A DNA stretch of 64,000 bases, from assembly GCA_963842525.1 (NCBI GenBank), contig CAWJGT010000025.1, positions 1 to 64,000 of the forward strand, in the 5' to 3' direction. Numbering within the stretch: the stretch's first letter is position 1; every line of letters starts with the position of its first letter. This stretch comes from an uncultured Holophagales bacterium (GTDB taxonomy: Bacteria; Acidobacteriota; Thermoanaerobaculia; Multivoradales; UBA5704). The notes under the pieces were generated by a model. The model searched no databases. It saw only the letters and a program-made list of their open reading frames with translations, and was not told the DNA's origin. A program made the translations under genes and the position numbers. Of this stretch, positions 1 through 15,774 are shown piece after piece.

Positions 1-125
1 TGGGGAAGCTGCGGACGGGCTTGTGGGGGTTGCGGAGAAGTTGCGGCGGCCGGGAAAATTCCGCAGTCCCTCCACAGGGATTCAGGGCTTCTCCTGCACA
101 GTCTTTTCACAGCTTTTCCAGGCCC
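1..125. promoter_or_regulatory. Cluster of degenerate DnaA boxes downstream of dnaA (probable part of oriC)
   Basis: Several TTATCCACA-like words (TGCGGAGAA 31-39, CCTCCACA 69-76, CTTTTCACA 103-111) immediately 3' of dnaA; position typical of a dnaA-dnaN origin segment. Confidence 0.5.
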
Positions 126-141
126 TCTCTTATCTGGGGAG

Positions 142-1440
142 TCAACCGAATTGGTGCTCGAGCCCCTGGAGCACGCAGTCGAGATCGGCGTCCCTTGCAC
201 GCCGGTCCTCGATGTCGCGGACCGAGTACATGACCGTGGAGTGGTGCTTGTCGTTGAAAAGCTTGCCGATCTCGGGATAGGAGAGGTCCGTCAGCTTCGC
301 GCAGCAGGTACATGGCCACCTTGCCGCGGGAAGACGATCTGCTGCGAGTTGCTCTTGCTCTTGATCTCCGAGACCTTCAGGTCGTAGTGGCCGGCCACGA
401 CCTTGATGATCTCGGCCGGGTCGGCTTCTTCCCCTCCTCGGGAGGATGTCCTTGAGCGTCTCCTCGGCAAGGTCGAGCGACAGCGGCTTGCCGGTCAGCG
501 AGGAGAAGGCGATCACCCGGTTGAGCAGCCCTTCGAGCTCGCGGATGTTCGATTTGACCTGCTGGGCGATGAACTCCGCCACATCGTCGGGGAGGTTGAC
601 GCTCTCGGCTTCGGCCTTGCGCTGCGAGGATCGCCACCTTGGTCTCGAGGTCCGGCGGCTGGATGTCGGCGATCAGGCCCCACTCGAAGCGGCTGCGCAG
701 CCGCTCCTCCAGCGTCGGGATGTTCCGCGGCGGGGAGTCGGTCGAGAGGACGATCTGCTTCTGGCTCGTGTAGAGCGTGTTGAAGGTGTGGAAGAACTCC
801 TCCTGCGTCCGCTCCTTGTTGGCGAGGAACTGCATGTCGTCGATCAACAGCACATCGATCGTCGCGGTAGCGCTCGCGGAACTGGCGGCATGCGGTCGAA
901 GCGGATGGAGTTGATCAGCTCGTTGATGAAGTGCTCGGCCGACCAGGTAGAGGACCCGGAGCGTTGCGGGCTGCTGCGCAGGATCTCGTGCCGATGGCAT
1001 GCATCAGGTGCGTCTTGCCGAGCCCTACGCCGCCGTAGAGGAACAGCGGGTTGTAGCTGTGGGACGGGTTCTCGGCCACCGCCTTGGCCGCGGCGTGGGC
1101 GAACTGGTTGGACTTGCCCACGACGAAGGTCTGGAAGATGTACTTCGGATTGAAGTGCCCCGGCGCCGGCACCTCGTCGGTGGACACCTCCTTGTCGTCT
1201 TCCTCCAACAAGAAGTGAACCTCAAAGGGGCGGCCGCTGAGGCCGGCCAGAGCCCGGTCCACGACGGAACGGTAGCTCTCTTCGAGCGTGTGCAGGAAAC
1301 GGGAATTGGGAGCGAGAAGGATCAGGCGGCCCTGCCCCTCCTTGCGTACCTTCAGGGGGAGGAACCAGGTCGCGAACTCCTCGGGATCGAGCTGCTTTCT
1401 GGAGCTGTTTCTGGAGGAGCGACCAGAGAGACTGGGGCAT
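142..1440 (-). CDS. dnaA: Chromosomal replication initiator DnaA (split by several frameshifts, probably sequence errors)
   Basis: Motifs spread over ORFs 1222-1440, 915-1262, 377-1000, 142-582: [54 protein letters not shown]. Confidence 0.95.
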
Positions 1441-1478
1441 GGGACCTCGGACGCGTGAAGCTAGTCAAATTCCGCAGG

Positions 1479-1499
1479 AATTCCACAGGGTGTGGAAAA
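1479..1499. promoter_or_regulatory. Inverted pair of DnaA boxes upstream of dnaA
   Basis: AATTCCACA (1479-1487) and TGTGGAAAA (1491-1499, reverse complement TTTTCCACA). Confidence 0.65.
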
Positions 1500-1565
1500 C
1501 CCTAACCCTGGAGGGTGGGGTCGTCAGTGCAGTGGAGACAGACGCTACTCGCTACGACTGGACGC

Positions 1566-1594
1566 ATCATAGCAACACCCATTCGTGCCCGCAA
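1566..1594 (-). promoter_or_regulatory. Putative sigma-70 promoter of dnaA
   Basis: Minus strand TTGCGG-17 nt-TATGAT with extended -10 TG (TGCTATGAT). Confidence 0.55.
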
Positions 1595-1833
1595 CCCCTC
1601 CGGCAGGGTGACTCCTTAGAAAGAACTTTTGGTGCGGTGTCCATGGGTCTACAAACTCTCTTCCCTTCCCAGGGGCAGCATATCCTACGCCTCCCGCGTG
1701 GTGAGTCTTGTAGAAATGCTTCGGGATCGAAGGAAGGATTTACACGAGAGAATATCTTCGAGATCCTCGCGAACCTCTTGCTTCAAGAAGATAAGCTGCT
1801 CGCAACAAAAGACTTACTCCTTTCATCCGAAAG

Positions 1834-1849
1834 TGGTACGTCTATTGCA
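1834..1849 (+). promoter_or_regulatory. Sigma-54 (-24/-12) promoter, unit 1
   Basis: TGGTAC-GTCTA-TTGCA matches TGGCAC-N5-TTGCW. Confidence 0.8.
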
Positions 1850-1859
1850 GAGAAGGAAG

Positions 1860-2073
1860 GGCAAGTTCATAGAGCGTTCAGGGGGAGGTGCCGTCCAGCC
1901 AAACGGAAGTTCCTGCCATCTCCAAGAGATCCTGAGATCTCGTCAACTTCTTTGATATCCCTTTCCCTCTCCCCTTCTACAGGGGTAGATCCCACAACCA
2001 ACCGTCCCAACTCAGGACCTCCCCCCTAACGCTCGGCTCAAATCTCCGGGAGCGAAAGCTCCCGTTTCCTTTT
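1860..2073 (+). ncRNA. Putative sigma-54-dependent structured small RNA, copy 1 (family not recognised)
   Basis: Promoter, closing stem 1872-1889/2017-2034 (16 of 18 bp), conserved CCCCT-loop-AGGGGTAGA and CCAACCG motifs, terminator; 5' end estimated. Confidence 0.7.
2047..2073 (+). terminator. Intrinsic terminator, unit 1
   Basis: CGGGAGC-GAAA-GCTCCCG followed by TTTCCTTTT. Confidence 0.8.
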
Positions 2074-2093
2074 AGTGCCCCAAGGAGAGGACC

Positions 2094-2109
2094 GGGCACG
2101 GCCATTGCA
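2094..2109 (+). promoter_or_regulatory. Sigma-54 (-24/-12) promoter, unit 2
   Basis: GGGCAC-GGCCA-TTGCA. Confidence 0.8.
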
Positions 2110-2119
2110 GTCTGAGAGA

Positions 2120-2315
2120 AGGCATACAGGAGAATGACCGAGGGGGAGGTTCCACCAGCCAACGACCAAGCCTACCGTATCCCGAGATCTCTAGATCTCA
2201 CCCTCTCATCCGACCTGCCGAATCCCCCTTCAACAGGGGTAGATCCACAAGGACCAACCGGAGAGATGGGCTTCCCCCCGTGACGCTCCCAGCCCCGCTG
2301 GGAGCGTTTTCCTTT
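2120..2315 (+). ncRNA. Putative sigma-54-dependent structured small RNA, copy 2
   Basis: Promoter, closing stem 2142-2151/2269-2278 with G.U pairs, shared motifs, terminator; 5' end estimated. Confidence 0.7.
2283..2315 (+). terminator. Intrinsic terminator, unit 2
   Basis: ACGCTCCCAGC-CCC-GCTGGGAGCGT followed by TTTCCTTT. Confidence 0.8.
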
Positions 2316-2350
2316 GAGGGGGAGGAGTGGGAGAGAAGGAATGAGAAACC

Positions 2351-2366
2351 AGGCACGGTTGTTGCA
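2351..2366 (+). promoter_or_regulatory. Sigma-54 (-24/-12) promoter, unit 3
   Basis: AGGCAC-GGTTG-TTGCA. Confidence 0.8.
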
Positions 2367-2376
2367 GGGGTTAGAT

Positions 2377-2570
2377 TCAGGAAATGACGAGGGGGAAGCT
2401 CCCACACACCAAAAGACTTCCCACCTAAAAACGAGGCCCTAGTGCCTCACCTTTGCAAAACATCCTCCTGATCCCCTATTGACAGGGGTAGAGCCAAATA
2501 AGCCAACCGGAGAGATGGGATGCCCCCCTCTTAAAGCCCTCTCCCCTTCGGGGAGGGGGATTTTCTTTTT
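2377..2570 (+). ncRNA. Putative sigma-54-dependent structured small RNA, copy 3
   Basis: Promoter, closing stem 2389-2404/2516-2530, shared motifs, terminator; 5' end estimated. Confidence 0.7.
2537..2570 (+). terminator. Intrinsic terminator, unit 3
   Basis: CCCTCTCCCC-TTC-GGGGAGGGGG followed by ATTTTCTTTTT. Confidence 0.8.
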
Positions 2571-2640
2571 CAGCAGACCTCTCTGCGCGTCGTGCTGAAA
2601 TCGCCATTCTTGCCTGCCAAATTGGCCGACCCGAGATAGA

Positions 2641-3786
2641 ATGACGCGGGTGCGGCATGCCCAGAACCTCCTCGCCTGGTTCGACAGGCACCGCCGCGAC
2701 CTGCCCTGGCGCCGAACGCGCGATCCCTACCGCATCTGGCTCTCGGAAGTGATGCTCCAGCAGACGCGCGTGGAGGTGGTGCTCCCCTATTACAAGAGGT
2801 TCCTGGAAAAATTTGCCACCGCCCAGGCCCTTGCGCAGGCAGACCTCGAAGAGGTCCTCGCCCTCTGGTCGGGCCTGGGCTACTACCGGCGAGCCCGGCA
2901 GCTCCATGCCGCGGCGCGGCGGGTCGCCGAGCTCGGCGGGTTCCCGCGGACCGTCGAGGGGCTGCGCGAGCTGCCGGGGATCGGGCCCTACACGGCGGCG
3001 GCAGTGGCGAGCATCGCCTTCGGCGTCCCCGAGCCGGTGCTCGACGGCAACGTCGAGCGCGTCCTCTCCCGCTGGCTGGCTCTCGACGCGGACTCGAAGG
3101 GGAGCGCCGCCCGCAAGGCTCTCCTGGCTGCGGCTTCGTCCCTGCTCGATCCGGAGCGCCCGGGCGACAGCAACCAGGCCCTCATGGAGCTGGGCGCTAC
3201 CCTCTGCACCCCGCGCCGCCCCAAGTGCCTCCTCTGTCCGCTCTCCACCGGCTGCCGGGCCGCGGCCGGGGGGAACCCCGAGCGGTACCCGCCGCCGCGG
3301 GTGAAGCGCGAGCCGGAACGGCACCGGCTGCTGGTCGCCGTGGTCGAGGACGACCGCGGCGTGCTGCTCTTCCGGCGGCCCGACGACAGCGAGCTCCTGG
3401 CCGGAACCTGGGAGCTGCCGTGGGTGCCCGTTCCCGCGGATGGCTCCCTGGAGCGGGCGGAGACGGACCTGGGCGCGCGGTATGGCGGCAGGTGGAGCCT
3501 GCGGGAGCAGGAAGCGGCGGTCCGCCACGGGATCACCTACCGGAATCTCGAGATCGCGGTGCACCGGGCGGAGCTGGCTGAGCGGCCGAAAGGCGGGCCG
3601 GTGCGCCATGGCTCGGAGGCTCCGGAGGCGGCGGCGGGGTGGTTCGACGAGGGGCGCCGGGCCGGGCTGCCGCAGTCGTCGCTGGTGGGGAAGGTGCTCG
3701 GGAGCCTGGCGGAGGGAGGAACGCTCAGGCGCGCTTCCGCGGGCGGTCCACCGGCCAGGAGATCCCGGTCCCGCCGGCGAGGATGA
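2641..3786 (+). CDS. mutY: A/G-specific adenine glycosylase
   Basis: RDLPWR, IWLSEVMLQQT, WSGLGYYRRAR, LPGIGPYTA, C-X6-C-X2-C-X5-C Fe-S motif. Confidence 0.95.
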   Translation: MTRVRHAQNLLAWFDRHRRDLPWRRTRDPYRIWLSEVMLQQTRVEVVLPYYKRFLEKFATAQALAQADLEEVLALWSGLGYYRRARQLHAAARRVAELGGFPRTVEGLRELPGIGPYTAAAVASIAFGVPEPVLDGNVERVLSRWLALDADSKGSAARKALLAAASSLLDPERPGDSNQALMELGATLCTPRRPKCLLCPLSTGCRAAAGGNPERYPPPRVKREPERHRLLVAVVEDDRGVLLFRRPDDSELLAGTWELPWVPVPADGSLERAETDLGARYGGRWSLREQEAAVRHGITYRNLEIAVHRAELAERPKGGPVRHGSEAPEAAAGWFDEGRRAGLPQSSLVGKVLGSLAEGGTLRRASAGGPPARRSRSRRRG

Positions 3787-4735
3787 ACCAGGTGATGATC
3801 TTGTCGTCGATCTCGCGCAGCCGGCCCGCCACCAGGTTGCAGAGGATCGAGAGCAGACGCAGGGAGGAGACCTTGTTGATGTCGAGGATCCCCTCCAGGA
3901 CGTCGCGCGGGATGGCGAGGACGACGGCTCCCTCGTCATGCGCCTTGGCGTCGGCCGAGCGCGGCGCGTTGTCGATGAGCGCCATCTCTCCGAAGTAGCC
4001 GCCGCGTTCGAGGAAGGCGAGGGCCTCCTCGCCCGCCCCCGGGATGAACTTGCTGATCATCACGCGCCCCTCGAGCACGATGTACATCTCGTAGGCCGTC
4101 TCCCCCTCGCGGAAGATGACCTGGTTGGGGGCGAACTTCTTCTCCTTCGAAAGGGTGGAGAGGAAGTTGATCTCCAGGTTGGAGAGCTTCTGTTCCTGGA
4201 AGAGCTTGCGCTTGACCGCCAGGTCGACGCGGAACTCCCCTCCCGGTTGGGCGTGGGTGATCGGATCGCCGGGCGGTGGACCGCCGGTCTCGGCGAAGAA
4301 CTGGCTGAGGTTGGCGTTCGTCTGGCGGAGCTTCCCCGAGAGGCTCTTCCAGAAGGTCCAGTAGAGGGCGAGTTGGAAGCCCGGGTCGCGCTCCTGCTGC
4401 GCCGCGAGCGCCGCCTGGTCGAAGGCGACGATCTCGGTCTCGGCGGTGGTGACCGCCGAGCCGGTCCGCGGCCCGTGGTCGACGATGGCGGTTTCGCCGA
4501 AGAGATCGCCGGGACCGAGGCTGGCCAGGGAGAACAGGCCGTAGGGGGTCTTCCTCTGGATGCGGATGCCGCCGCTGCGGATCATGTAGGCGCCGCGAGA
4601 CGCCTCCCCCTCCTGGACCACCAGGGTGTCGGCCGGATGCTGGACGAGGGAGGCGCACCCGGCGAGCTGAGACAACTGCTCATCGCTGAAGTGGGAGAAG
4701 AGATCCCACTGCCGGAAAAGTCCCTGGAGGCTCAA
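3725..4735 (-). CDS. Tandem cyclic-nucleotide-binding domain protein
   Basis: Two cNMP cassettes (GDLFGETAIV..GPRTGSA; GGYFGEMALID.APRSADA); TTG start inferred. Confidence 0.8.
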   Translation of the reverse strand: MSLQGLFRQWDLFSHFSDEQLSQLAGCASLVQHPADTLVVQEGEASRGAYMIRSGGIRIQRKTPYGLFSLASLGPGDLFGETAIVDHGPRTGSAVTTAETEIVAFDQAALAAQQERDPGFQLALYWTFWKSLSGKLRQTNANLSQFFAETGGPPPGDPITHAQPGGEFRVDLAVKRKLFQEQKLSNLEINFLSTLSKEKKFAPNQVIFREGETAYEMYIVLEGRVMISKFIPGAGEEALAFLERGGYFGEMALIDNAPRSADAKAHDEGAVVLAIPRDVLEGILDINKVSSLRLLSILCNLVAGRLREIDDKIITWFILAGGTGISWPVDRPRKRA

Positions 4736-4742
4736 GGTCCGC

Positions 4743-5420
4743 CTATTGTAGCGGAAGCGGACCGGAGTCGGTGAGCAGGAGCTCGGCGAGGCGGCTGGCC
4801 GGAGCCGAGGCCTGGCCTTCGCGGCGCGCCCATGCGGCCCGGTCGGGATCGCCGAAGGCGGCCCACAGGGCGGCAGCCTGGAGGAACCACTCGGCGAAGA
4901 GGGGCTCGCCGCTGCCCAGGTCGGAGCGCAGCTTGCTCTCGAGAGGCGCCTCGACCTCGTCGAAGAGGCGGCGGGCCGCCGGAGGATTTCCGCGCCGCAG
5001 CTCGAGCCAGGCGCGGTGGAGGTTAATGGACTCGGCGAGGTCGGAGCGGTTGGCGGCCGCCGTGGCGAAGGCCTGCTCGGCCGCGGCGTAGTCGCCCCCA
5101 TAGGAGGCGACGAGGCCGGACTCCAGCCAGGCCTCCCCGTCCTCCGGATCGTCGGCGAGGATCCGCCGCAGGAGCTCGCGGGAGGTTTTCAGATCGAGCA
5201 GGTGCTTGGCGGCTACGGCCGCAGCGTACAGCTCGTCCCGCCGGGCCCGCCCCTCCGTCCGCGCCGCCGCCAGGGCCGCCGCGAAGTCTCCCCGCCCCAG
5301 CGCTTCCATCGCCGGGCTCCCCTCCGACCGCCGCAACACCAAGAACAGCCCGATCGACGCCGCGGCGCCAAGGAGGGCCAGGAGGAAGATGAAGATCCCT
5401 TCGAAAGTGGGCATGGTCAT
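4743..5420 (-). CDS. Membrane-anchored TPR-like protein
   Basis: N-terminal TM helix, helical repeats (DPEDGEAWLESG...YAAAEQAF). Confidence 0.65.
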   Translation of the reverse strand: MTMPTFEGIFIFLLALLGAAASIGLFLVLRRSEGSPAMEALGRGDFAAALAAARTEGRARRDELYAAAVAAKHLLDLKTSRELLRRILADDPEDGEAWLESGLVASYGGDYAAAEQAFATAAANRSDLAESINLHRAWLELRRGNPPAARRLFDEVEAPLESKLRSDLGSGEPLFAEWFLQAAALWAAFGDPDRAAWARREGQASAPASRLAELLLTDSGPLPLQ

Positions 5421-5499
5421 CCGGGCTCGGCGCCATGTTAGCCGATCTACGCGCCGCCGTCAGAGGGTGTCTGGGGCGGGGCCGAGGTCAAGGAATCCC

Positions 5500-5830
5500 G
5501 GGAAAACGTCTCGCGGACCGTGGTCCTTAAAGCATTGACTGCAGGAAACGACCCGCGGACCCGGGTCCCTCAAGTACTGACTACAGGAAATGGGCCGCGG
5601 ACCGCGATCCCTCAAGCACGGAATAAAGCAAATGAGCCGCGGACCCGGGTCCCTGAAGCATTGACTACAGCAAACGTCGCACGGACCCGGGTCCTTGTAG
5701 CAGGGACTAAAGAAAAAGTCACGCGGACCGCGGTCCCTCAAGCATCGACTGTAGGAAACGGGCCGCGGACCGCGGTCCCTCAAGCACGGACTAAAGGACG
5801 CGGCACGTTGACTGCGGTCCTTTAGGCATG
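5500..5830. repeat. Degenerate 42-bp tandem repeat, about 8 copies, with palindromic core
   Basis: CGCGGACC(C/G)(G/C)GGTCCCTCAAGCA-like unit starts at 5512, 5554, 5596, 5638, 5680, 5722, 5764, 5806. Confidence 0.9.
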
Positions 5831-5892
5831 ATCCCGAGACCGTGGCGCGTTGTCCCGGGTCCATGGGCAGCGTCCCGATCTCGGGTCCTTCC

Positions 5893-6462
5893 TCACAGCA
5901 GCGGGAGCTGCACCGGCCCGAGGACGTGCTCCCAGACCTCCTGCTCGACCGTATCGAGCCAGGATGCGCGGCTGTCGGGGGCGAGGTGGAGGGCGGAGAT
6001 GCCGCGGCCGTCGAGCTCGCGGGCGAGGCGCTCCTCCACGGCGAGCTGGAACGCCGGATTGGCCGAGCGGATGCCGTCCGGGTTTGGCTGCTCCAGGACC
6101 GGCACGTGCACCAGGAGGTCGTAGGTGCGCATCCAGGACTCCACGAGCGTCTCCAACGCCTCCTGCCGGCCGGCGGAGAGCAGGAGGTAGACATAGTTGT
6201 CGAGGACGCTCCGGTCGCAGATCACCGCCGGATAGCGGGACTGGGCCACCAGCTCCTCGGTGATCTGGGCGTGGAGGATCCACGACTGCGCGGCGACCGA
6301 GGTCTCCTCGTTGATCGGCAGCGGACAGCGCCGCGCCACTTCATGCACAACCTCGACCGCCACGTCCCGAACCTTGAGGCGCGCGGCGAGACCGTAGCAG
6401 AGGGTGGTCTTCCCTACGCCATGGCTGCCAATGAAGGCAATCTTGTACCGCGGAGCGCTCAC
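5893..6462 (-). CDS. AAA_28/NadR-Ttd14-like P-loop ATPase or kinase
   Basis: KIAFIGSHGVGKTTL, EVAR, ICDRSVLDNYVY. Confidence 0.8.
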   Translation of the reverse strand: MSAPRYKIAFIGSHGVGKTTLCYGLAARLKVRDVAVEVVHEVARRCPLPINEETSVAAQSWILHAQITEELVAQSRYPAVICDRSVLDNYVYLLLSAGRQEALETLVESWMRTYDLLVHVPVLEQPNPDGIRSANPAFQLAVEERLARELDGRGISALHLAPDSRASWLDTVEQEVWEHVLGPVQLPLL

Positions 6463-11546: not shown

Positions 11547-11681
11547 GTGAAACGGACCTTTCAACCGAACAACCGTCGCCGCAAGCGGACTCACGGCTTC
11601 CTGGTGCGGATGCGCACCCGTAACGGCCGGGCCGTCATCTCGCGGCGTCGCGCGAAGGGACGCAAGCGCCTGAGCGTCTGA
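11547..11681 (+). CDS. rpmH: 50S ribosomal protein L34
   Basis: Manual translation [44 protein letters not shown] (44 aa; absent from ORF track). Confidence 0.97.
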
Positions 11682-12262
11682 TGCCGGGCCCTCCGCGCGG
11701 GACGTGCGAGCGCCTGCCACCGGAGGAGCGGCTGCGGCAGCGGGCGGACTATCTCAGGGGTTATCGGACGGGCCGCCGGCGCCATGGAGCGCTGGCGATT
11801 CTCTACTTCGTTCCGAACCAGGTCGGGCATCCACGCCTCGGGATCACCGCCAGCCGCAAGGTCGGCAAAGCGGTGGTCCGCCAGCGGCTCAAGCGGAGGA
11901 TCCGAGAGATCTACCGGCGATGGAACGACCGTGGGAGTCTCCCAGCCCTGGACCTGATCGTCCATGTGAAGCCAGAGGCCGGCGCGTCGGATTTCCCGGC
12001 GATCCGGGAGGATCTTCTGCGGCTCCTCGGGGGCGTGCTCCGCGAGGCCGGCGCAACGGCCCGTGGCCTGATCTGGCTGCTCGTCCTGTACAAGAGAAAG
12101 GTCTCGCCGCTCCTGCCTCCCTCCTGCCGCTTCACCCCCACCTGTTCGGAGTATGCCCGGCTCGCCCTGTTGAAGCACGGACTCGCGCGTGGCCTCGTCC
12201 GGACCGCCGGCCGGCTGCTCCGTTGCCAACCCCTCCATCCGGGAGGGGTCGACCTGCCATAG
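11681..12262 (+). CDS. rnpA: RNase P protein fused in frame to a YidD domain
   Basis: RLGITASRKVGKAVVRQRLKRRIRE, then SPLLPPSCRFTPTCSEY...RLLRCQPLHPGGVDLP. Confidence 0.9.
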   Translation: MPGPPRGTCERLPPEERLRQRADYLRGYRTGRRRHGALAILYFVPNQVGHPRLGITASRKVGKAVVRQRLKRRIREIYRRWNDRGSLPALDLIVHVKPEAGASDFPAIREDLLRLLGGVLREAGATARGLIWLLVLYKRKVSPLLPPSCRFTPTCSEYARLALLKHGLARGLVRTAGRLLRCQPLHPGGVDLP

Positions 12263-12299
12263 AGGCCCGTGTGCCGGAACGCCAACCAGAGAGGAATTC

Positions 12300-13985
12300 G
12301 TGGACAATCGCCGGTTGATCTTTGCCGCCCTCCTGTCGATGGCCTTTGTCATCGCCTGGACCATCCTTGTTCCGCCGAAACCAGCCAAGAAGCCGCCGGC
12401 GCCTGTGCCGCGCCAGGAGGCCGCCGCCCCGGCGCCGGCCGAGCGACCTCCCGCGACCTCTCCGGCTGCTCCGGCTGCTCCGGCGGGAAGCCTCACGAGC
12501 GTCCCGAAGCAGCCGCCGGTCAGCGCCGGGAGCGAGGAGCGGGTGGTCCTCGCGGCGGGCGATGTGCGGGCGACCTTCACCAACCGCGGCGCCCATCTCG
12601 TCTCGATGACGGTGGCCGAGCCAGGGCGCACGCAGCGGCTGGAGCTGGTGCAGCGGCGTGCCGAAGACCCCTGGCCCTATGGCCTCACCGGCAAGGACCG
12701 CGGGCCGCACCCGCTCGGCCAGGCGCTCTTCCAGGCGGAGCGCGGCGCGGACGGCCGTTCGGTCGTCTTCCGCTACCGCGGCCCCGAGGGGGAGGCCGAA
12801 AAGCGGTTCGGCTTCGATCCGCAAAGCCTTCTCGAGACGCAGATCGCCCTGCCGGGCCAGGAAGGCTGGGGCGTCGTCCTCGGTCCGGGCATCCGCAATC
12901 TGACGCGCGAGGAGTACGAGAGCAGCTACGCGCGCCGCGGCGTGGCCTACAGGGCGGGCGGCGACATGACCGTCCTCGACCCCAAGAGCGAGGACGAGCC
13001 GCAGTCGCTGCCGGGCCAGGGGCTGGACTGGATCGGCGTGGAGGACAACTATTTCCTTGCCGCCACCATCCCTCGGAAGGGGCTCGGCCGCGCGGTCATC
13101 GAGCCATTCCTGGTGGAGGGGGCGGGCAGCGACAGGGCCCGCTTCGTTCCGCTGCCGTCCAAGGACGAGCTCTCCGATGCTCAGAAGAAGATGCCGCGCG
13201 AGCTGCGGGTGGTCCTCCTCCCCGAGGGGGACCGGCTCGACCTGCTCTCTTACTGGGGTCCGAAGCAATACAAGAGGCTTGCGGCGCTGCCCTACGGCCT
13301 GGAGGAGAGCGTCCAGCTCGGGATGTTCGGGTTCCTGGCGCGCCCGCTGCTCGCCGGCCTCCTCTGGATCCACGACCACGTGACCCCCAACTATGGCTGG
13401 GCCATCGTGCTGATGACCATCGTGATCCGCCTGCTGCTCCTGCCGCTGACCCATACCAGCATGCGGTCCATGAAGAAAATGCAGGAGCTCAACCCGAAGA
13501 TGCAGGCGATCCGGGAGCGCTACCGGAGCAAGCTCAAGGACAAGCAGGGCCGGCCGAACGTCGAGATGCAGCGCAAGATGAACGAGGAGGTCATGGGCCT
13601 GTACAAGGAGCACGGGGTCAACCCGGCGGGCGGGTGCCTGCCGCTCCTGCTGCAGATCCCGATCATGTTCGCCTTCTACCAGATGCTGATCTCGGCGGTC
13701 GAGCTGCGCGGCGCGCCATGGGCGCTGTGGATCCACGACCTCTCGGCGGCGGACCCCTACTACATCCTGCCGCTCGTGATGGGCGCCACCCAGTTCCTCC
13801 AGGTGAAGCTCTCGCCGCAGACGGGCGATCCGATGCAGCGGCGGATGTTCCTGTTCATGCCGCTGGTGATGACCATCTTCTTCCTCGGGGTCCCGAGCGG
13901 GCTGGTCCTGTACTGGCTGACGAGCAACATCTTGACCATCATCCAACAGTGGGTTTACAACCGTGTCCAGACGCGGAACGCGTGA
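12300..13985 (+). CDS. yidC: Membrane protein insertase YidC
   Basis: NYGWAIVLMT, NPAGGCLPLLLQIP, DLSAADPYYILP, PSGLVLYW; GTG start. Confidence 0.97.
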   Translation: MDNRRLIFAALLSMAFVIAWTILVPPKPAKKPPAPVPRQEAAAPAPAERPPATSPAAPAAPAGSLTSVPKQPPVSAGSEERVVLAAGDVRATFTNRGAHLVSMTVAEPGRTQRLELVQRRAEDPWPYGLTGKDRGPHPLGQALFQAERGADGRSVVFRYRGPEGEAEKRFGFDPQSLLETQIALPGQEGWGVVLGPGIRNLTREEYESSYARRGVAYRAGGDMTVLDPKSEDEPQSLPGQGLDWIGVEDNYFLAATIPRKGLGRAVIEPFLVEGAGSDRARFVPLPSKDELSDAQKKMPRELRVVLLPEGDRLDLLSYWGPKQYKRLAALPYGLEESVQLGMFGFLARPLLAGLLWIHDHVTPNYGWAIVLMTIVIRLLLLPLTHTSMRSMKKMQELNPKMQAIRERYRSKLKDKQGRPNVEMQRKMNEEVMGLYKEHGVNPAGGCLPLLLQIPIMFAFYQMLISAVELRGAPWALWIHDLSAADPYYILPLVMGATQFLQVKLSPQTGDPMQRRMFLFMPLVMTIFFLGVPSGLVLYWLTSNILTIIQQWVYNRVQTRNA

Positions 13986-13998
13986 TCCGAGCCACCCT

Positions 13999-15066
13999 AT
14001 GAGCGAACCGAACGAACCGATCGAGCCCAACCAACCGAACGAGCCCAAGAGACGATTCTTCTCGGGCGACAGCCTGCAGCAGGCCCTGGTGCAGGCGGCC
14101 AACCACTACAAACTCGACCCGTCCGAGATCGCCTACCGCAGCATCGAGAAGAAGCACGGCTTCATCAAGGTGCGGCGCAAGGTGGTGATCGAGGTGGACC
14201 CCGACGCGCCGCGGCGGGACCGGTCGTTCGTGCCGCCCGCGGCTCCCGCGGCTCCGGTGCCCTCGGCCGAGGCGGTCGCCGCGCGGCCGACGGCGCGACT
14301 GGAAGCGCCGCCGCCAGGCGCTCCCGCCGAGCAGCGCCCTCGCCTCCAGCTAGGAGAGCGGCCCGCGCGGGGAGAGAGCTCCCGCGGCGAGCGCGGCCCC
14401 CGCCGGGATGGTCGCCGGAGTGATCGCCGGGGTGATCACCGGGACGAGCGGCCGCGGATGGCGCCGCTGCGCCCCCGGCGCGAGCAACCCGATGCGGCGG
14501 CGCGGCCGGCGCACTGGTCGGACGCACCTCCCCCGCGGCCCGCCGCCTTCGGAGACCTGGTCACACTCCCGGACTCCCCGCGGCGGATCGCGGAGCGCTT
14601 TCCTCCGGCAGAGGGTCCACAGGCGGACGCGGCAATGAAAGGTGCGGAGCTCCTGCTGCGCGTAGCCGGCCTCGACCTCGCGCCGCGCGTCCTCCAGGGG
14701 GAGGAGCGGCTGGAGGTCGACCTGAGCGGCTCGGACGTCGACTGGTGCTTCGCCGACGACGGCGAGCTGGTGCTGGCGATCGAGCACCTGCTGCCGCGCC
14801 TCATCCGCAGCCTGAGCGGGGAGGCGGCCCTCGTGCGGGTCGACTGCGACAACTTCCAGGAGATCCGCGAGGAGAGGCTGCGCAGCCTGGCGCAGCAGGT
14901 GGCGGACGAGGTGCGCCGCCGCGGCAAGCCGCGTATCCTGGAACCGATGAACCCGGCCGACCGCCGGATCATCCACATGACCCTCGCCGACGACCCCGCC
15001 GTCTTCACCGAGAGCGAGGGCGACGGCTACTTCAAGCGCATCGCCGTCAAGCCGGCCGCGGTCTGA
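13999..15066 (+). CDS. jag: Jag/EloR (KhpB) RNA-binding protein with Jag_N and R3H domains
   Basis: Jag_N-like N-terminus and PMNPADRRIIH R3H motif; follows yidC. Confidence 0.85.
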   Translation: MSEPNEPIEPNQPNEPKRRFFSGDSLQQALVQAANHYKLDPSEIAYRSIEKKHGFIKVRRKVVIEVDPDAPRRDRSFVPPAAPAAPVPSAEAVAARPTARLEAPPPGAPAEQRPRLQLGERPARGESSRGERGPRRDGRRSDRRGDHRDERPRMAPLRPRREQPDAAARPAHWSDAPPPRPAAFGDLVTLPDSPRRIAERFPPAEGPQADAAMKGAELLLRVAGLDLAPRVLQGEERLEVDLSGSDVDWCFADDGELVLAIEHLLPRLIRSLSGEAALVRVDCDNFQEIREERLRSLAQQVADEVRRRGKPRILEPMNPADRRIIHMTLADDPAVFTESEGDGYFKRIAVKPAAV

Positions 15067-15080
15067 GAGCCCGCCGGGCA

Positions 15081-15096
15081 CGTTCCACGTGGAACG
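15081..15096. promoter_or_regulatory. parS site 1
   Basis: CGTTCCACGTGGAACG within a 30-bp perfect palindrome 15074-15103. Confidence 0.9.
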
Positions 15097-15117
15097 TGCC
15101 CGGTTCCCAGAACCTCT

Positions 15118-15133
15118 TCTTTCACGTGGAACA
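15118..15133. promoter_or_regulatory. parS site 2
   Basis: TCTTTCACGTGGAACA, one mismatch to consensus; overlaps the first base of the rsmG ATG. Confidence 0.8.
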
Positions 15134-15774
15134 TGCCCTTCGCCTTGCCATCGATCTCCCGCGACAGGTTCGGCGGGGAGATCGCAGCGTGCTCACCAGA
15201 GCCTTTGGACGGGCGGGCGATCGACTCCCTCTACGCGCACTACCAGGAGCTGTCGGCCTGGAATCAGAAGCTGTCGCTCATCGGCCCGGGCACGGCGGGC
15301 GAGATCGTGGAGCGCCACTACGGCGAGGCGCTCGCCGCGCTGCCGCTCATCCCTTCCGAGGCACGCCACGGGCTCGATATCGGATCGGGCGCGGGCTTCC
15401 CGGGCCTCGTTCTCGCCGCCGCCCGGCCTGGGCTCGAGATGACGCTCGTCGAGGCCCGCGAGCGCAAGTGGGCGTTCCTTCTCGCCGCCGCCCGCAAGGC
15501 CGCGTTGCCCTGCCGGGTCCTCAATGCTAGAGTGTCCGCTCCGCTCCCAGCCGGTCTGCCGGCGAGCCTCGACATCGTCACCGCCAGGGCTCTGAAGCTC
15601 GATCCGGCGACGCTGTCGGCGCTCGCAGAGCGCCTGGGACCGGATGGCCGGATCCTGCTCTGGTTGGGCGAAGAAGACGCCGACCTGCCGCCGGAACTGG
15701 CGCCAGCCGGGAGCCTTCAGCTCCCGGGGAGCGAACGGCGGCGCATAGTGCAGATCCAGCGCTCCCAGAGATGA
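15133..15774 (+). CDS. rsmG: 16S rRNA m7G527 methyltransferase
   Basis: WNQKLSL, LDIGSGAGFPG, VTARAL; upstream of parA. Confidence 0.92.
   Translation: MPFALPSISRDRFGGEIAACSPEPLDGRAIDSLYAHYQELSAWNQKLSLIGPGTAGEIVERHYGEALAALPLIPSEARHGLDIGSGAGFPGLVLAAARPGLEMTLVEARERKWAFLLAAARKAALPCRVLNARVSAPLPAGLPASLDIVTARALKLDPATLSALAERLGPDGRILLWLGEEDADLPPELAPAGSLQLPGSERRRIVQIQRSQR

Follow-up and report, generated by a model that had tools for sequence, protein, structure and literature searches.

The stretch of DNA analyzed here, called the window, comprises the first 64,000 nucleotides (nt) of contig CAWJGT010000025.1 (C25) in the assembly GCA_963842525.1 of an uncultured Holophagales bacterium. Near its start, about 1.2 kb of DNA with a lower G+C content separates dnaA, which reads leftward, from the rightward gene mutY. 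Within this stretch, positions 1834 to 2570 hold three diverged paralogous units, each of which combines a GG-N10-GC promoter of the sigma-54 (-24/-12) type with a roughly 145-nt core and an intrinsic terminator. A sequence-only reading of the window had described these units as an array of sigma-54-driven small RNA (sRNA) genes, and we found all of the features that it listed, at coordinates that were exact or off by no more than 1 nt. Its view of the units as a diverged paralogous RNA family with sigma-54 elements was also borne out, by the paralogy itself, a covarying fold, conserved -24/-12 elements, and terminators belonging to each unit. We regard the units, with high confidence, as genuine RNA genes that are driven by sigma-54 and form a new family.

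Repeat analysis placed the unit starts 260 and 257 nt apart (repeat family D6), the spacing claimed earlier, and the three units are 67% identical when compared column by column. The blocks that they had been said to share keep the same order in units 1, 2, and 3. These include (C/G)AGGGGGA(G/A)G, which is common to all units (repeat families D5/D7), and CCCCTTC(T/A)ACAGGGGTAGA(T/G)CC at 1971, 2225, and 2474 (family D2); CCAACCGGAGAGATGGG is present in units 2 and 3 (family D1). The description of the region as geneless and lower in G+C agrees with our data: the array has a G+C content of 56.1%, compared with 68.8% for the whole window, and none of the four tested open reading frames (ORFs) overlapping the region had a Pfam match. 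The spacer at 1441 to 1833 has 53.4% G+C and mutY has 73.7%. A coding role for the region was rejected, as the ORFs have no Pfam match and the leader ATG lacks conservation among relatives.

A search of the genome returned a second array, 98% identical to the first, on contig C5. Because C5:1-8836 matches C25:1-8849 as its reverse complement (98.5% identity, 29 gaps), the ends of the two contigs overlap. The genome holds one array, and the C5 copy is the overlapping contig end. On C5, dnaA is intact (a 445-amino-acid frame), so the broken dnaA frames in the window are assembly errors and do not mark a pseudogene. The RNA genes of the window may likewise contain small indels.

Table 1. Features of the array and its surroundings, by position in the window
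Feature	Position	Strand	Remarks
dnaA	142..1440	-	Bac_DnaA and Bac_DnaA_C match two fragments; divergent upstream neighbor; split into several frames
Candidate distal upstream element	1705..1752	+	TTGTAGAAATGC, about 20 nt, GGATTTACACGA; about 126 nt before unit 1 -24 GG
Unit 1 promoter, TGGTAC-N5-TTGCA	1834..1849	+	GGTACGTCTATTGCA from 1835; predicted start about 1860
RNA 1 (type A)	1860..2073	+	Model alignment and terminator call; predicted transcript ends
Unit 1 helices	P1 1881-1892/2014-2025; P2 1926-1931/1936-1941; P3 1971-1974/1982-1985		Model alignment
Unit 1 terminator stem	2047-2064	+	G+C-rich hairpin, then T tract
Unit 2 promoter, GGGCAC-N5-TTGCA	2094..2109	+	GGCACGGCCATTGCA from 2095; 11/12 consensus positions; predicted start about 2120
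RNA 2 (type B)	2120..2316	+	Model alignment and terminator call; predicted transcript ends
Unit 2 helices	P1 2142-2153/2268-2278; P2 2184-2189/2194-2199; P3 2225-2228/2236-2239		Model alignment
Unit 2 terminator stem	2282-2308	+	G+C-rich hairpin, then T tract
GGAAT element	2338..2342	+	14 nt before unit 3 -24 GG
Unit 3 promoter, AGGCAC-N5-TTGCA	2351..2366	+	GGCACGGTTGTTGCA from 2352; predicted start about 2377
RNA 3 (type B)	2377..2570	+	Model alignment and terminator call; predicted transcript ends
Unit 3 helices	P1 2392-2403/2517-2528; P2 2433-2438/2443-2448; P3 2474-2477/2485-2488		Model alignment
Unit 3 terminator stem	2537-2559	+	10-bp G+C-rich stem, then T tract
mutY	2641..3786	+	HhH-GPD, HHH, and NUDIX_4 domains; co-directional downstream neighbor

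The start sites in Table 1 are predicted from the standard -24/-12 spacing. Taken alone, the promoter word is unremarkable in the window: GG-N8-TTGCA occurs 7 times versus 5.0 expected, a count matched or exceeded in 28 of 100 shuffles, so the case for the promoters rests on their arrangement and conservation. To look at relatives, we used two covariance models, R1 and R2, that represent the RNA core only and contain neither promoter nor terminator, which makes the DNA upstream of their matches an independent promoter test. Promoters were scored as at least 9 of 12 matches to the consensus TGGCACG-N4-TTGCW. The GG-N10-GC spacing, whose conservation in homologs had been put forward as a check, was kept before 76 of the 77 model matches (53 loci), with at least 9 of the 12 consensus positions; the sole miss is a degenerate third copy. 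These promoters lie 34 to 63 nt before the model start (mode, 44 to 46), and the GG, the A of GGCA, the second T of TTGC, and the GC are invariant across all 76. A first look at distant family members found the promoter in nine out of nine. Chance is excluded by the periodic arrangement together with the conservation of the promoter in relatives. The genome itself has one rpoN gene (Sigma54_DBD, C34:61948-62424) and 37 Sigma54_activat genes, and rpoN is present in 146 of the 151 genomes of the order.

A hairpin followed by a T tract closes each of the three units, as had been claimed, and the region contains 7 terminator-like sites versus 1.4 expected. Across the family, 37 of 77 units have a strong terminator, 22 have a weak one, and 18 have none. 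The corresponding counts are 13, 8, and 3 for inner units (n = 24), 7, 3, and 6 for last units (n = 16), and 17, 11, and 9 for single units (n = 37).

The core of the RNA is closed by a 12-bp G/C-rich helix, P1, in which GGGGGAGGUUCC pairs with GGGGCCUCCCCC, and is preceded by a short variable leader. Two small hairpins, P2 and P3, stand within a large junction, and the terminator is located directly 3' of P1. In each predicted transcript, GGGGGAGG on the 5' side pairs with CCUCCCCC on the 3' side. Minimum free energies were -72 kcal/mol (z, -3.7) for RNA 1, -73 kcal/mol (z, -3.0) for RNA 2, and -65.4 kcal/mol (z, -1.6) for RNA 3. The strands between the helices bear CCNNCC words (CCAGCC, CCUACC, CCUGCC, and CCAACC in unit 2) and a near-invariant ACAGGGGUAGAUCC, and the predicted unpaired probability of the C-rich strands is 0.6 to 0.8.

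We tested the fold on 78 units aligned to R2 (P1, 12 bp; P2, 6 bp; P3, 4 bp). In this set, 93.2% of cells were paired, compared with 87.0% in shuffles, and 19 of the 22 pairs showed changes on both sides. Cells with both-side changes numbered 116 versus 28 in shuffles, a count that none of 500 shuffles reached. Fairer tests than shuffles are partners slid along the alignment, with which pairing was at most 68.5%, and the four inner P1 pairs on which R2 had not been trained. These four pairs covary (the first, 11-203, is UA in 40 units, UG in 18, and CG in 9), and an unguided mutual-information scan ranked pairs of P2 and P1 at the top. P2 occurs as GAGAUC/GAUCUC, GAGGCC/GGCCUC, and GAGACC/GGUCUC; its 20 G-U cells fit RNA pairing, and a DNA palindrome would not need them. 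P1 is lengthened outward by lineage-specific complementary words, such as AGCGU/ACGCU and AAGUAUG/CAUACUU, and has a duplex energy of -22 to -39 kcal/mol. P3 (CCCC/GGGG) is nearly unvarying in the main family and covaries in the weak paralogs described below (CCCUGG/CCAGGG, CCGCU/AGCGG, and CCCCGG/CCGGGG).

Two further pairings were tried. Helix P4, which joins (A/U)CCCUCU after P2 to GAGA-U-GGG before the 3' strand of P1, formed part of model R1 and was 77.5% paired in an alignment that had been fitted to it. It was dropped from the main fold, given that a shifted register reached 62% and that in other families the same GGR pairs with the 5' strand of P1 with full Watson-Crick complementarity; in type B units, P4 may be an alternative pairing. 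A pseudoknot, CUACC/GGUAG, was judged by eye and rejected: some rows covary (CACC/GGUG), and equally many do not.

With the own genome included, R1 matched 90 of 92 genomes of the own family and R2 matched 108 of 151 genomes of the order (the order tallies take in one unpublished genome, G333, on which none of our claims depends). Both family misses are 910-contig assemblies, 93% and 88% complete. Outside the order, R1 matched none of 114 genomes from other orders of the class, and R2 matched none of 147 genomes from the rest of the phylum. As far as sampled, the RNA family is confined to one order of Thermoanaerobaculia (Acidobacteriota). Within the order, and leaving the own genome aside, R2 matched nearly all genomes in ten families (f1, 21/21; f2, 6/6; f3, 7/8; f4, 8/8; f5, 19/22; f6, 1/1; f9, 21/21; f10, 10/10; f11, 10/10; f12, 1/1), gave weak matches in 3 of 21 genomes of f7, and found nothing in the 21 genomes of f8. 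Loss of sigma-54 was rejected as the cause of this absence, since rpoN is present in 20 of 21 genomes in f7 and in all 21 in f8.

With BLAST, matches appeared in 21 of the 24 other own-family genomes and in none of 16 genomes from other families of the order. A hidden Markov model of the three units returned 50 nonredundant units in arrays of one to three. A pattern scan of a species-level genome collection yielded 45 loci, 36 of them in metagenome-assembled genomes (MAGs) labeled Thermoanaerobaculia, Acidobacteriota, or "Holophagales"; the nine nonacidobacterial matches (Herbaspirillum, Streptomyces, and others) had no covariance-model match and were rejected as chance. Acidobacteriota, the phylum toward which the sequence-only reading had pointed, thus proved right. 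The best R1 match in the own genome is unit 2 (120.5 bits).

The sequence-only reading had asked whether copy number varies, and it does: within the family, it is fixed by genus at one, two, or three. Where a genome has several copies, the ACCCUCU and CCGGAGAGAUGGGG blocks mark the later units (type B) and are missing from the first (type A). We built a tree of 77 units from 143 columns, which is weakly resolved. In it, the first units of four genera cluster (Shimodaira-Hasegawa-like approximate likelihood ratio test [SH-aLRT], 93), and unit 1 of the window falls among first units from other genera. Units 2 and 3 of the window join the second and third units of congeners. Since units group by position across genera, the duplications must be older than the genera, with every copy retained since.

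Ten further loci comprised eight with weak second matches (in f5 and f3) and two mutY-linked copies, L146 and L151, in which the sigma-54 promoter is present. The weak paralogs score 38 to 54 bits and keep the core, but their promoters differ. Four of them (L145, L150, L152, and L153, in f5 and f3; 38 to 52 bits) have no sigma-54 promoter and carry CTTGTGA-N6-TCACAAG followed by TATGAT, TATACT, or TAGGCT, which we take, going by the consensus, to be a CRP/FNR-type box overlapping a sigma-70 promoter. The other four (L144, L147, L148, and L149, all in f5) also have no sigma-54 promoter and precede an FeS_assembly_P (PF01883) gene that reads in the same direction. This gene follows directly in three loci and behind a PALP gene in L144, and these four loci share the word (G/A)TTT(T/C)CTGAC(A/G) between the weak paralog and the FeS_assembly_P gene. 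MutY itself is an iron-sulfur (Fe-S) enzyme, and a link of the RNA family to Fe-S is conceivable but speculative. The promoters and neighborhoods assigned to the weak paralogs need confirmation. That the core is kept under other promoters argues that it is the functional module.

We annotated the neighborhood with Pfam at 11 loci and then at 10 more. A sigma-54-type RNA is located directly upstream of a co-directional mutY in 12 of 13 annotated loci (f1, f4, f5, and f9); in genus g9, the RNA lies apart from mutY and is not followed by a co-directional gene. Conservation of the site between dnaA and mutY, raised as a question by the sequence-only reading, thus held on the mutY side and failed on the dnaA side, where sppA/rimK-type genes intervene in many relatives. 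The RNA locus adjoins dnaA in the window and in f9. In relatives, TTCCACA/TGTGGAA words are overrepresented in the DNA preceding the RNA (9 to 11 of 53 loci versus <1 expected), which places the locus next to the dnaA promoter/origin region in many genomes. In the window, the DnaA-box-like words CCTCCACAGGG (69 to 79) and TTCCACAGGGTGTGGAAAA (1481 to 1499) flank dnaA.

Other features of the neighborhood are side observations. A palindrome, GCCAAATTGGC, lies at 2616 to 2626 between the last terminator and mutY, within a sigma-70-like promoter match (2614 to 2642). Similar words (GCCAAATTGG and TGCCAAATTGAC) stand at the same place in several relatives, and the palindrome may be a mutY operator. 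A gene with two cyclic-nucleotide-binding domains (3725 to 5101, minus strand) converges on mutY, and a cNMP_binding gene stands just past mutY in 11 of 12 annotated mutY-linked loci. Positions 11681 to 15774 hold a classical origin-proximal cluster with an rnpA-yidD fusion frame, yidC, an R3H-domain gene, and gidB. The product of the R3H-domain (Jag/KhpB-like) gene, at 13963 to 15066, is an RNA-binding candidate.

Two kinds of upstream element may bear on control of the array. The distal bipartite element before unit 1 may be the site of an activator (upstream activating sequence). A counterpart, TTG(T/C)AGAAATGCCA ... TTG(T/C)AC, stands before 13 of 19 first or only units of f1, in seven genera, at -95 to -200. 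With a weight matrix trained without the window, 1705 to 1752 scored highest in the 9.9-Mb genome (30.2), and the runner-up (24.3) fell in a coding region. A regulon reached through further copies of the element in the own genome was considered and rejected, as none was found and the runner-up has no promoter. The GGAAT element recurs at -14/-15 in 18 of 76 family promoters, mostly of inner and single units, compared with 5 of 308 45-nt background windows that contain the word anywhere. No upstream motif shared by all families was found; only the DnaA-box words and the f1 element were enriched.

We also compared the 37 activators of the own genome, by the AAA domain alone, across three RNA-positive and two RNA-negative genomes. 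Only C3:976652-978043 and C6:16131-17039 have reciprocal-best orthologs in all three RNA-positive genomes, and orthologs of both also occur in one RNA-negative genome. The former encodes a REC-AAA protein of 464 amino acids and follows a gene for an HtrA-like protease. The latter encodes a protein of 303 amino acids with AAA and HTH_8 only (a PspF-like architecture) and follows obg and nadD.

The units matched no Rfam 15 family (window positions 1 to 6000; E values of up to 1), including Qrr, GlmY, GlmZ, CrcZ, 6S, CsrB/Rsm, Acido-1, and Acido-Lenti-1 where the release has them. This is in line with the earlier statement that the sequence was not recognized as Qrr, CrcZ/CrcY, or Pxr, and ten further family members had no match at E values of up to 0.1. 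Weak matches to AsdA, an antisense RNA of the dnaA mRNA, fall inside the dnaA coding sequence at 962 to 1037 (plus strand) and at L081:2409-2476. These are subthreshold (24.4 and 28.9 bits versus a gathering score of 52; E values, 0.095 and 0.037) and probably reflect conserved dnaA sequence. Among the best-ranked matches in the full-text literature, we found no description of a sigma-54 small RNA family of Acidobacteria or Thermoanaerobaculia. To our knowledge, regulatory RNAs of Acidobacteriota are essentially unstudied. As to possible Hfq-dependent base pairing, the own genome has hfq, the units end in a terminator with a T tract, and the C-rich strands are predicted to be accessible, but no target was found in the antisense and downstream-gene searches described below.

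Sequences about 97% like the window occur as contigs in three soil RNA libraries from two studies. Unit 1 is represented by contigs corresponding to 1876 to 2030, 1889 to 2035, and 1889 to 2032, at depths of 26.9, 3.9, and 5.7, and unit 3 is represented by a record corresponding to 2392 to 2528 with adaptor sequence on both sides. Compared with the window, the unit 1 contigs show three single-base indels. Only diverged fragments of mutY were present in the libraries. The contigs did not cover the promoters, the spacers, or dnaA, and such holes prove nothing.

On balance, we lean toward reading the region as three independently transcribed, structured noncoding RNA genes of about 195 to 215 nt that act in trans and depend on sigma-54. 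We infer that the RNAs are regulatory and that an enhancer-binding protein drives the units. Transcription would need RpoN and an enhancer-binding protein bound at a distance; the RNAs would be made only on a specific signal because of this double need. The array would raise, and perhaps diversify, RNA output, with unit 1 being a distinct old subtype. In trans, the exposed C-rich strands would pair with G-rich stretches of mRNA, for example, ribosome-binding regions, with the help of Hfq. Base pairing through these strands is our first-ranked mode of action, put forward tentatively and modeled on the C-rich-seed sRNAs RsaE and RoxS.

Several observations weigh against this reading. In both contig copies, unit 1 has GGTAC as its -24 element, whereas the other 75 of 76 promoters have a C in place of this T. 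A terminator was not recognizable in 18 of 77 units, 15 of which are among the 53 last or single units beside mutY. Related sequences inflate covariation counts relative to shuffles even without any constraint. The RNA-library contigs are of read length, come from a close relative, show neither ends nor strand, and may represent DNA carryover. No activator gene was found within about 7 kb at 11 loci or within about 2.5 kb on each side at 10 further loci, and none of the 37 activators was both conserved in the three RNA-positive genomes and missing from the two RNA-negative ones. A search of the genome gave no outstanding antisense match, only a few 15- to 17-mers, which is roughly the chance number by simple arithmetic. 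When the three junction strands were compared with the start of the downstream gene at 51 loci, the mean z values were -0.06, 0.03, and 0.30, with one, two, and one loci, respectively, below a z of -2. In addition, repeated short single-strand motifs are equally compatible with a protein sponge and with seed regions.

Such a sponge is an unlikely but substantial alternative. Four to six exposed CCNNCC words on a rigid P1 scaffold would titrate an RNA-binding protein, much as CrcZ does with Hfq/Crc or GlmY does with RapZ, and subtypes and copy number would tune the capacity. The repetition of CCNNCC in predicted single strands speaks for it, as do loops conserved beyond the needs of pairing (e.g., ACAGGGGUAGAUCC and CCAACC), the lack of detectable mRNA complementarity in the genome antisense search and at the 51 downstream gene starts, and the existence of paralogs with the same core under different promoters. 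We found no candidate protein, however, and CCNNCC differs from the A-rich Hfq/Crc motif. A CsrA/RsmA sponge in particular is at odds with the loops, which are C-rich rather than GGA-rich, and with the genome, which is 96% complete and in which csrA was not found. The coexistence of two old subtypes recalls the mimicry between GlmY and GlmZ, as outlined in PMC4152352. The present evidence does not tell protein binding from base pairing.

The position of the array raises two other alternatives. The unit next to mutY could serve mainly as a long, structured 5' leader (or attenuator) through which sigma-54 controls mutY, with the upstream copies being duplicates. The recurrent co-directional placement before mutY (12 of 13 annotated loci in f1, f4, f5, and f9) and the four weak f5 paralogs before an FeS_assembly_P gene fit this idea, and a recognizable terminator is missing from 15 of 53 last or single units versus 3 of 24 inner units, which leaves room for read-through into mutY in some lineages. 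The window itself gives no hint of read-through, its unit 3 ending in a 10-bp stem and T tract. Most units have a terminator of their own, inner units are complete in both promoter and terminator, and mutY is preceded by a sigma-70-like promoter located downstream of the array. The RNA of genus g9 stands away from mutY, no pairing with the mutY start region was found, and P1 is too stable (-22 to -39 kcal/mol as a duplex) for a ligand-switched helix, all of which makes a cis-acting leader improbable. The array could also act as DNA, either bound by protein or as origin DNA activated by transcription, with a functionless RNA product. It adjoins dnaA in the window, with DnaA-box-like TTCCACA/TGTGGAA directly upstream, and the same words are enriched before the RNA in relatives. 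Against this, compensatory changes and G-U pairs maintain RNA helices on one strand, promoters and terminators are conserved unit by unit, and in many genomes the array stays with mutY while sppA/rimK separate it from dnaA. We consider a DNA-level role very improbable.

A bolder reading, which we regard as a long shot, is that the 145-nt core is a modular effector: a rigid P1 scaffold displaying several CCNNCC sites, acting as a sponge for an RNA-binding protein or for G-rich RNA and wired to differing inputs in different lineages of the order. The inputs would be sigma-54 and an activator at the origin-proximal mutY locus, a CRP/FNR-type box overlapping a sigma-70 promoter at the second loci, and other promoters before the co-directional SufT-like Fe-S assembly gene, which follows immediately in three of its four loci. 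If this were true, oxidative-damage repair and Fe-S homeostasis would be coupled to those inputs, and the old types A and B would act hierarchically, like GlmY and GlmZ. Apart from any mode of action, the family is a concrete Rfam candidate, with a clear fold and a near-invariant promoter, and is nearly universal in most families of one soil order whose members, where we saw them named, are uncultured MAGs. It offers an entry point to the sigma-54 regulon in these bacteria. Its one to three copies, old subtypes, and possibly swapped promoters form a natural series that could show how sRNAs duplicate, diverge, and are rewired.

Several known systems resemble the array in part. Qrr1 to Qrr5 of Vibrio are multicopy sRNAs that depend on sigma-54, an activator, and Hfq, and their copy number shapes the response; they are about 100 nt long, dispersed, and marked by a conserved 32-nt seed, and Rfam gave no match between them and the array. 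CrcZ, CrcY, and CrcX of Pseudomonas depend on sigma-54 and CbrB and sequester protein through repeated short single-stranded motifs. They are 400 nt long and their motifs are rich in A, in contrast to the CCNNCC words found here, and again there was no Rfam match. In RsaE and RoxS of Firmicutes, unpaired C-rich stretches pair with G-rich ribosome-binding regions, but these RNAs have sigma-A promoters, a different fold, and no homology to the family, for which pairing is only inferred. A riboswitch or other cis-acting leader would be a single element in the 5' untranslated region of the gene it regulates, with a terminator that alternates with the aptamer helix; the conserved site before mutY points that way, whereas the promoters and terminators belonging to the array and the very stable P1 point the other way.

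The sequence-only reading had compared the array with Qrr, CrcZ/CrcY, and Pxr. Of these, Pxr is indeed the closest, but the pair GlmY/GlmZ had been overlooked. In Enterobacteriaceae, GlmY and GlmZ are under the control of sigma-54 and GlrR, and a sigma-70 promoter replaces the sigma-54 promoter in some species, according to PMC3045617; one paralog acts as a decoy for the other (PMC4152352). The family resembles this pair in having weak paralogs with non-sigma-54 promoters and in the coexistence of two old subtypes. It differs in that GlmY and GlmZ do not stand in tandem, have a known target and partner protein, and have no Rfam match to the units; sites of the TGTC-N10-GACA type associated with the pair were not seen here, although no formal search was made.

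Pxr of Myxococcus and Cystobacter has a predicted sigma-54 promoter, a fold of several stem-loops, and a fixed chromosomal locus, and in Cystobacter, tandem pxr paralogs each have their own sigma-54 promoter and have diverged in sequence and effect, as described in PMC5568312. We detected no relationship in sequence or structure between Pxr and the units, going by its description and by the Rfam search, which may not include Pxr. Pxr is about 108 nt long with three stem-loops, which by its description sets it apart from the 145-nt core with a long closing P1. Its gene adjoins the activator gene nla19, unlike the 11 loci inspected over about 7 kb here, and its host belongs to a different phylum. 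The likeness lies in the arrangement, namely, tandem diverged paralogs with their own sigma-54 promoters, which the Cystobacter genes share with this array (PMC5568312). The family is new, yet its kind, that of multicopy sRNAs driven by sigma-54, is known from Pxr, Qrr, GlmY/GlmZ, and CrcZ.

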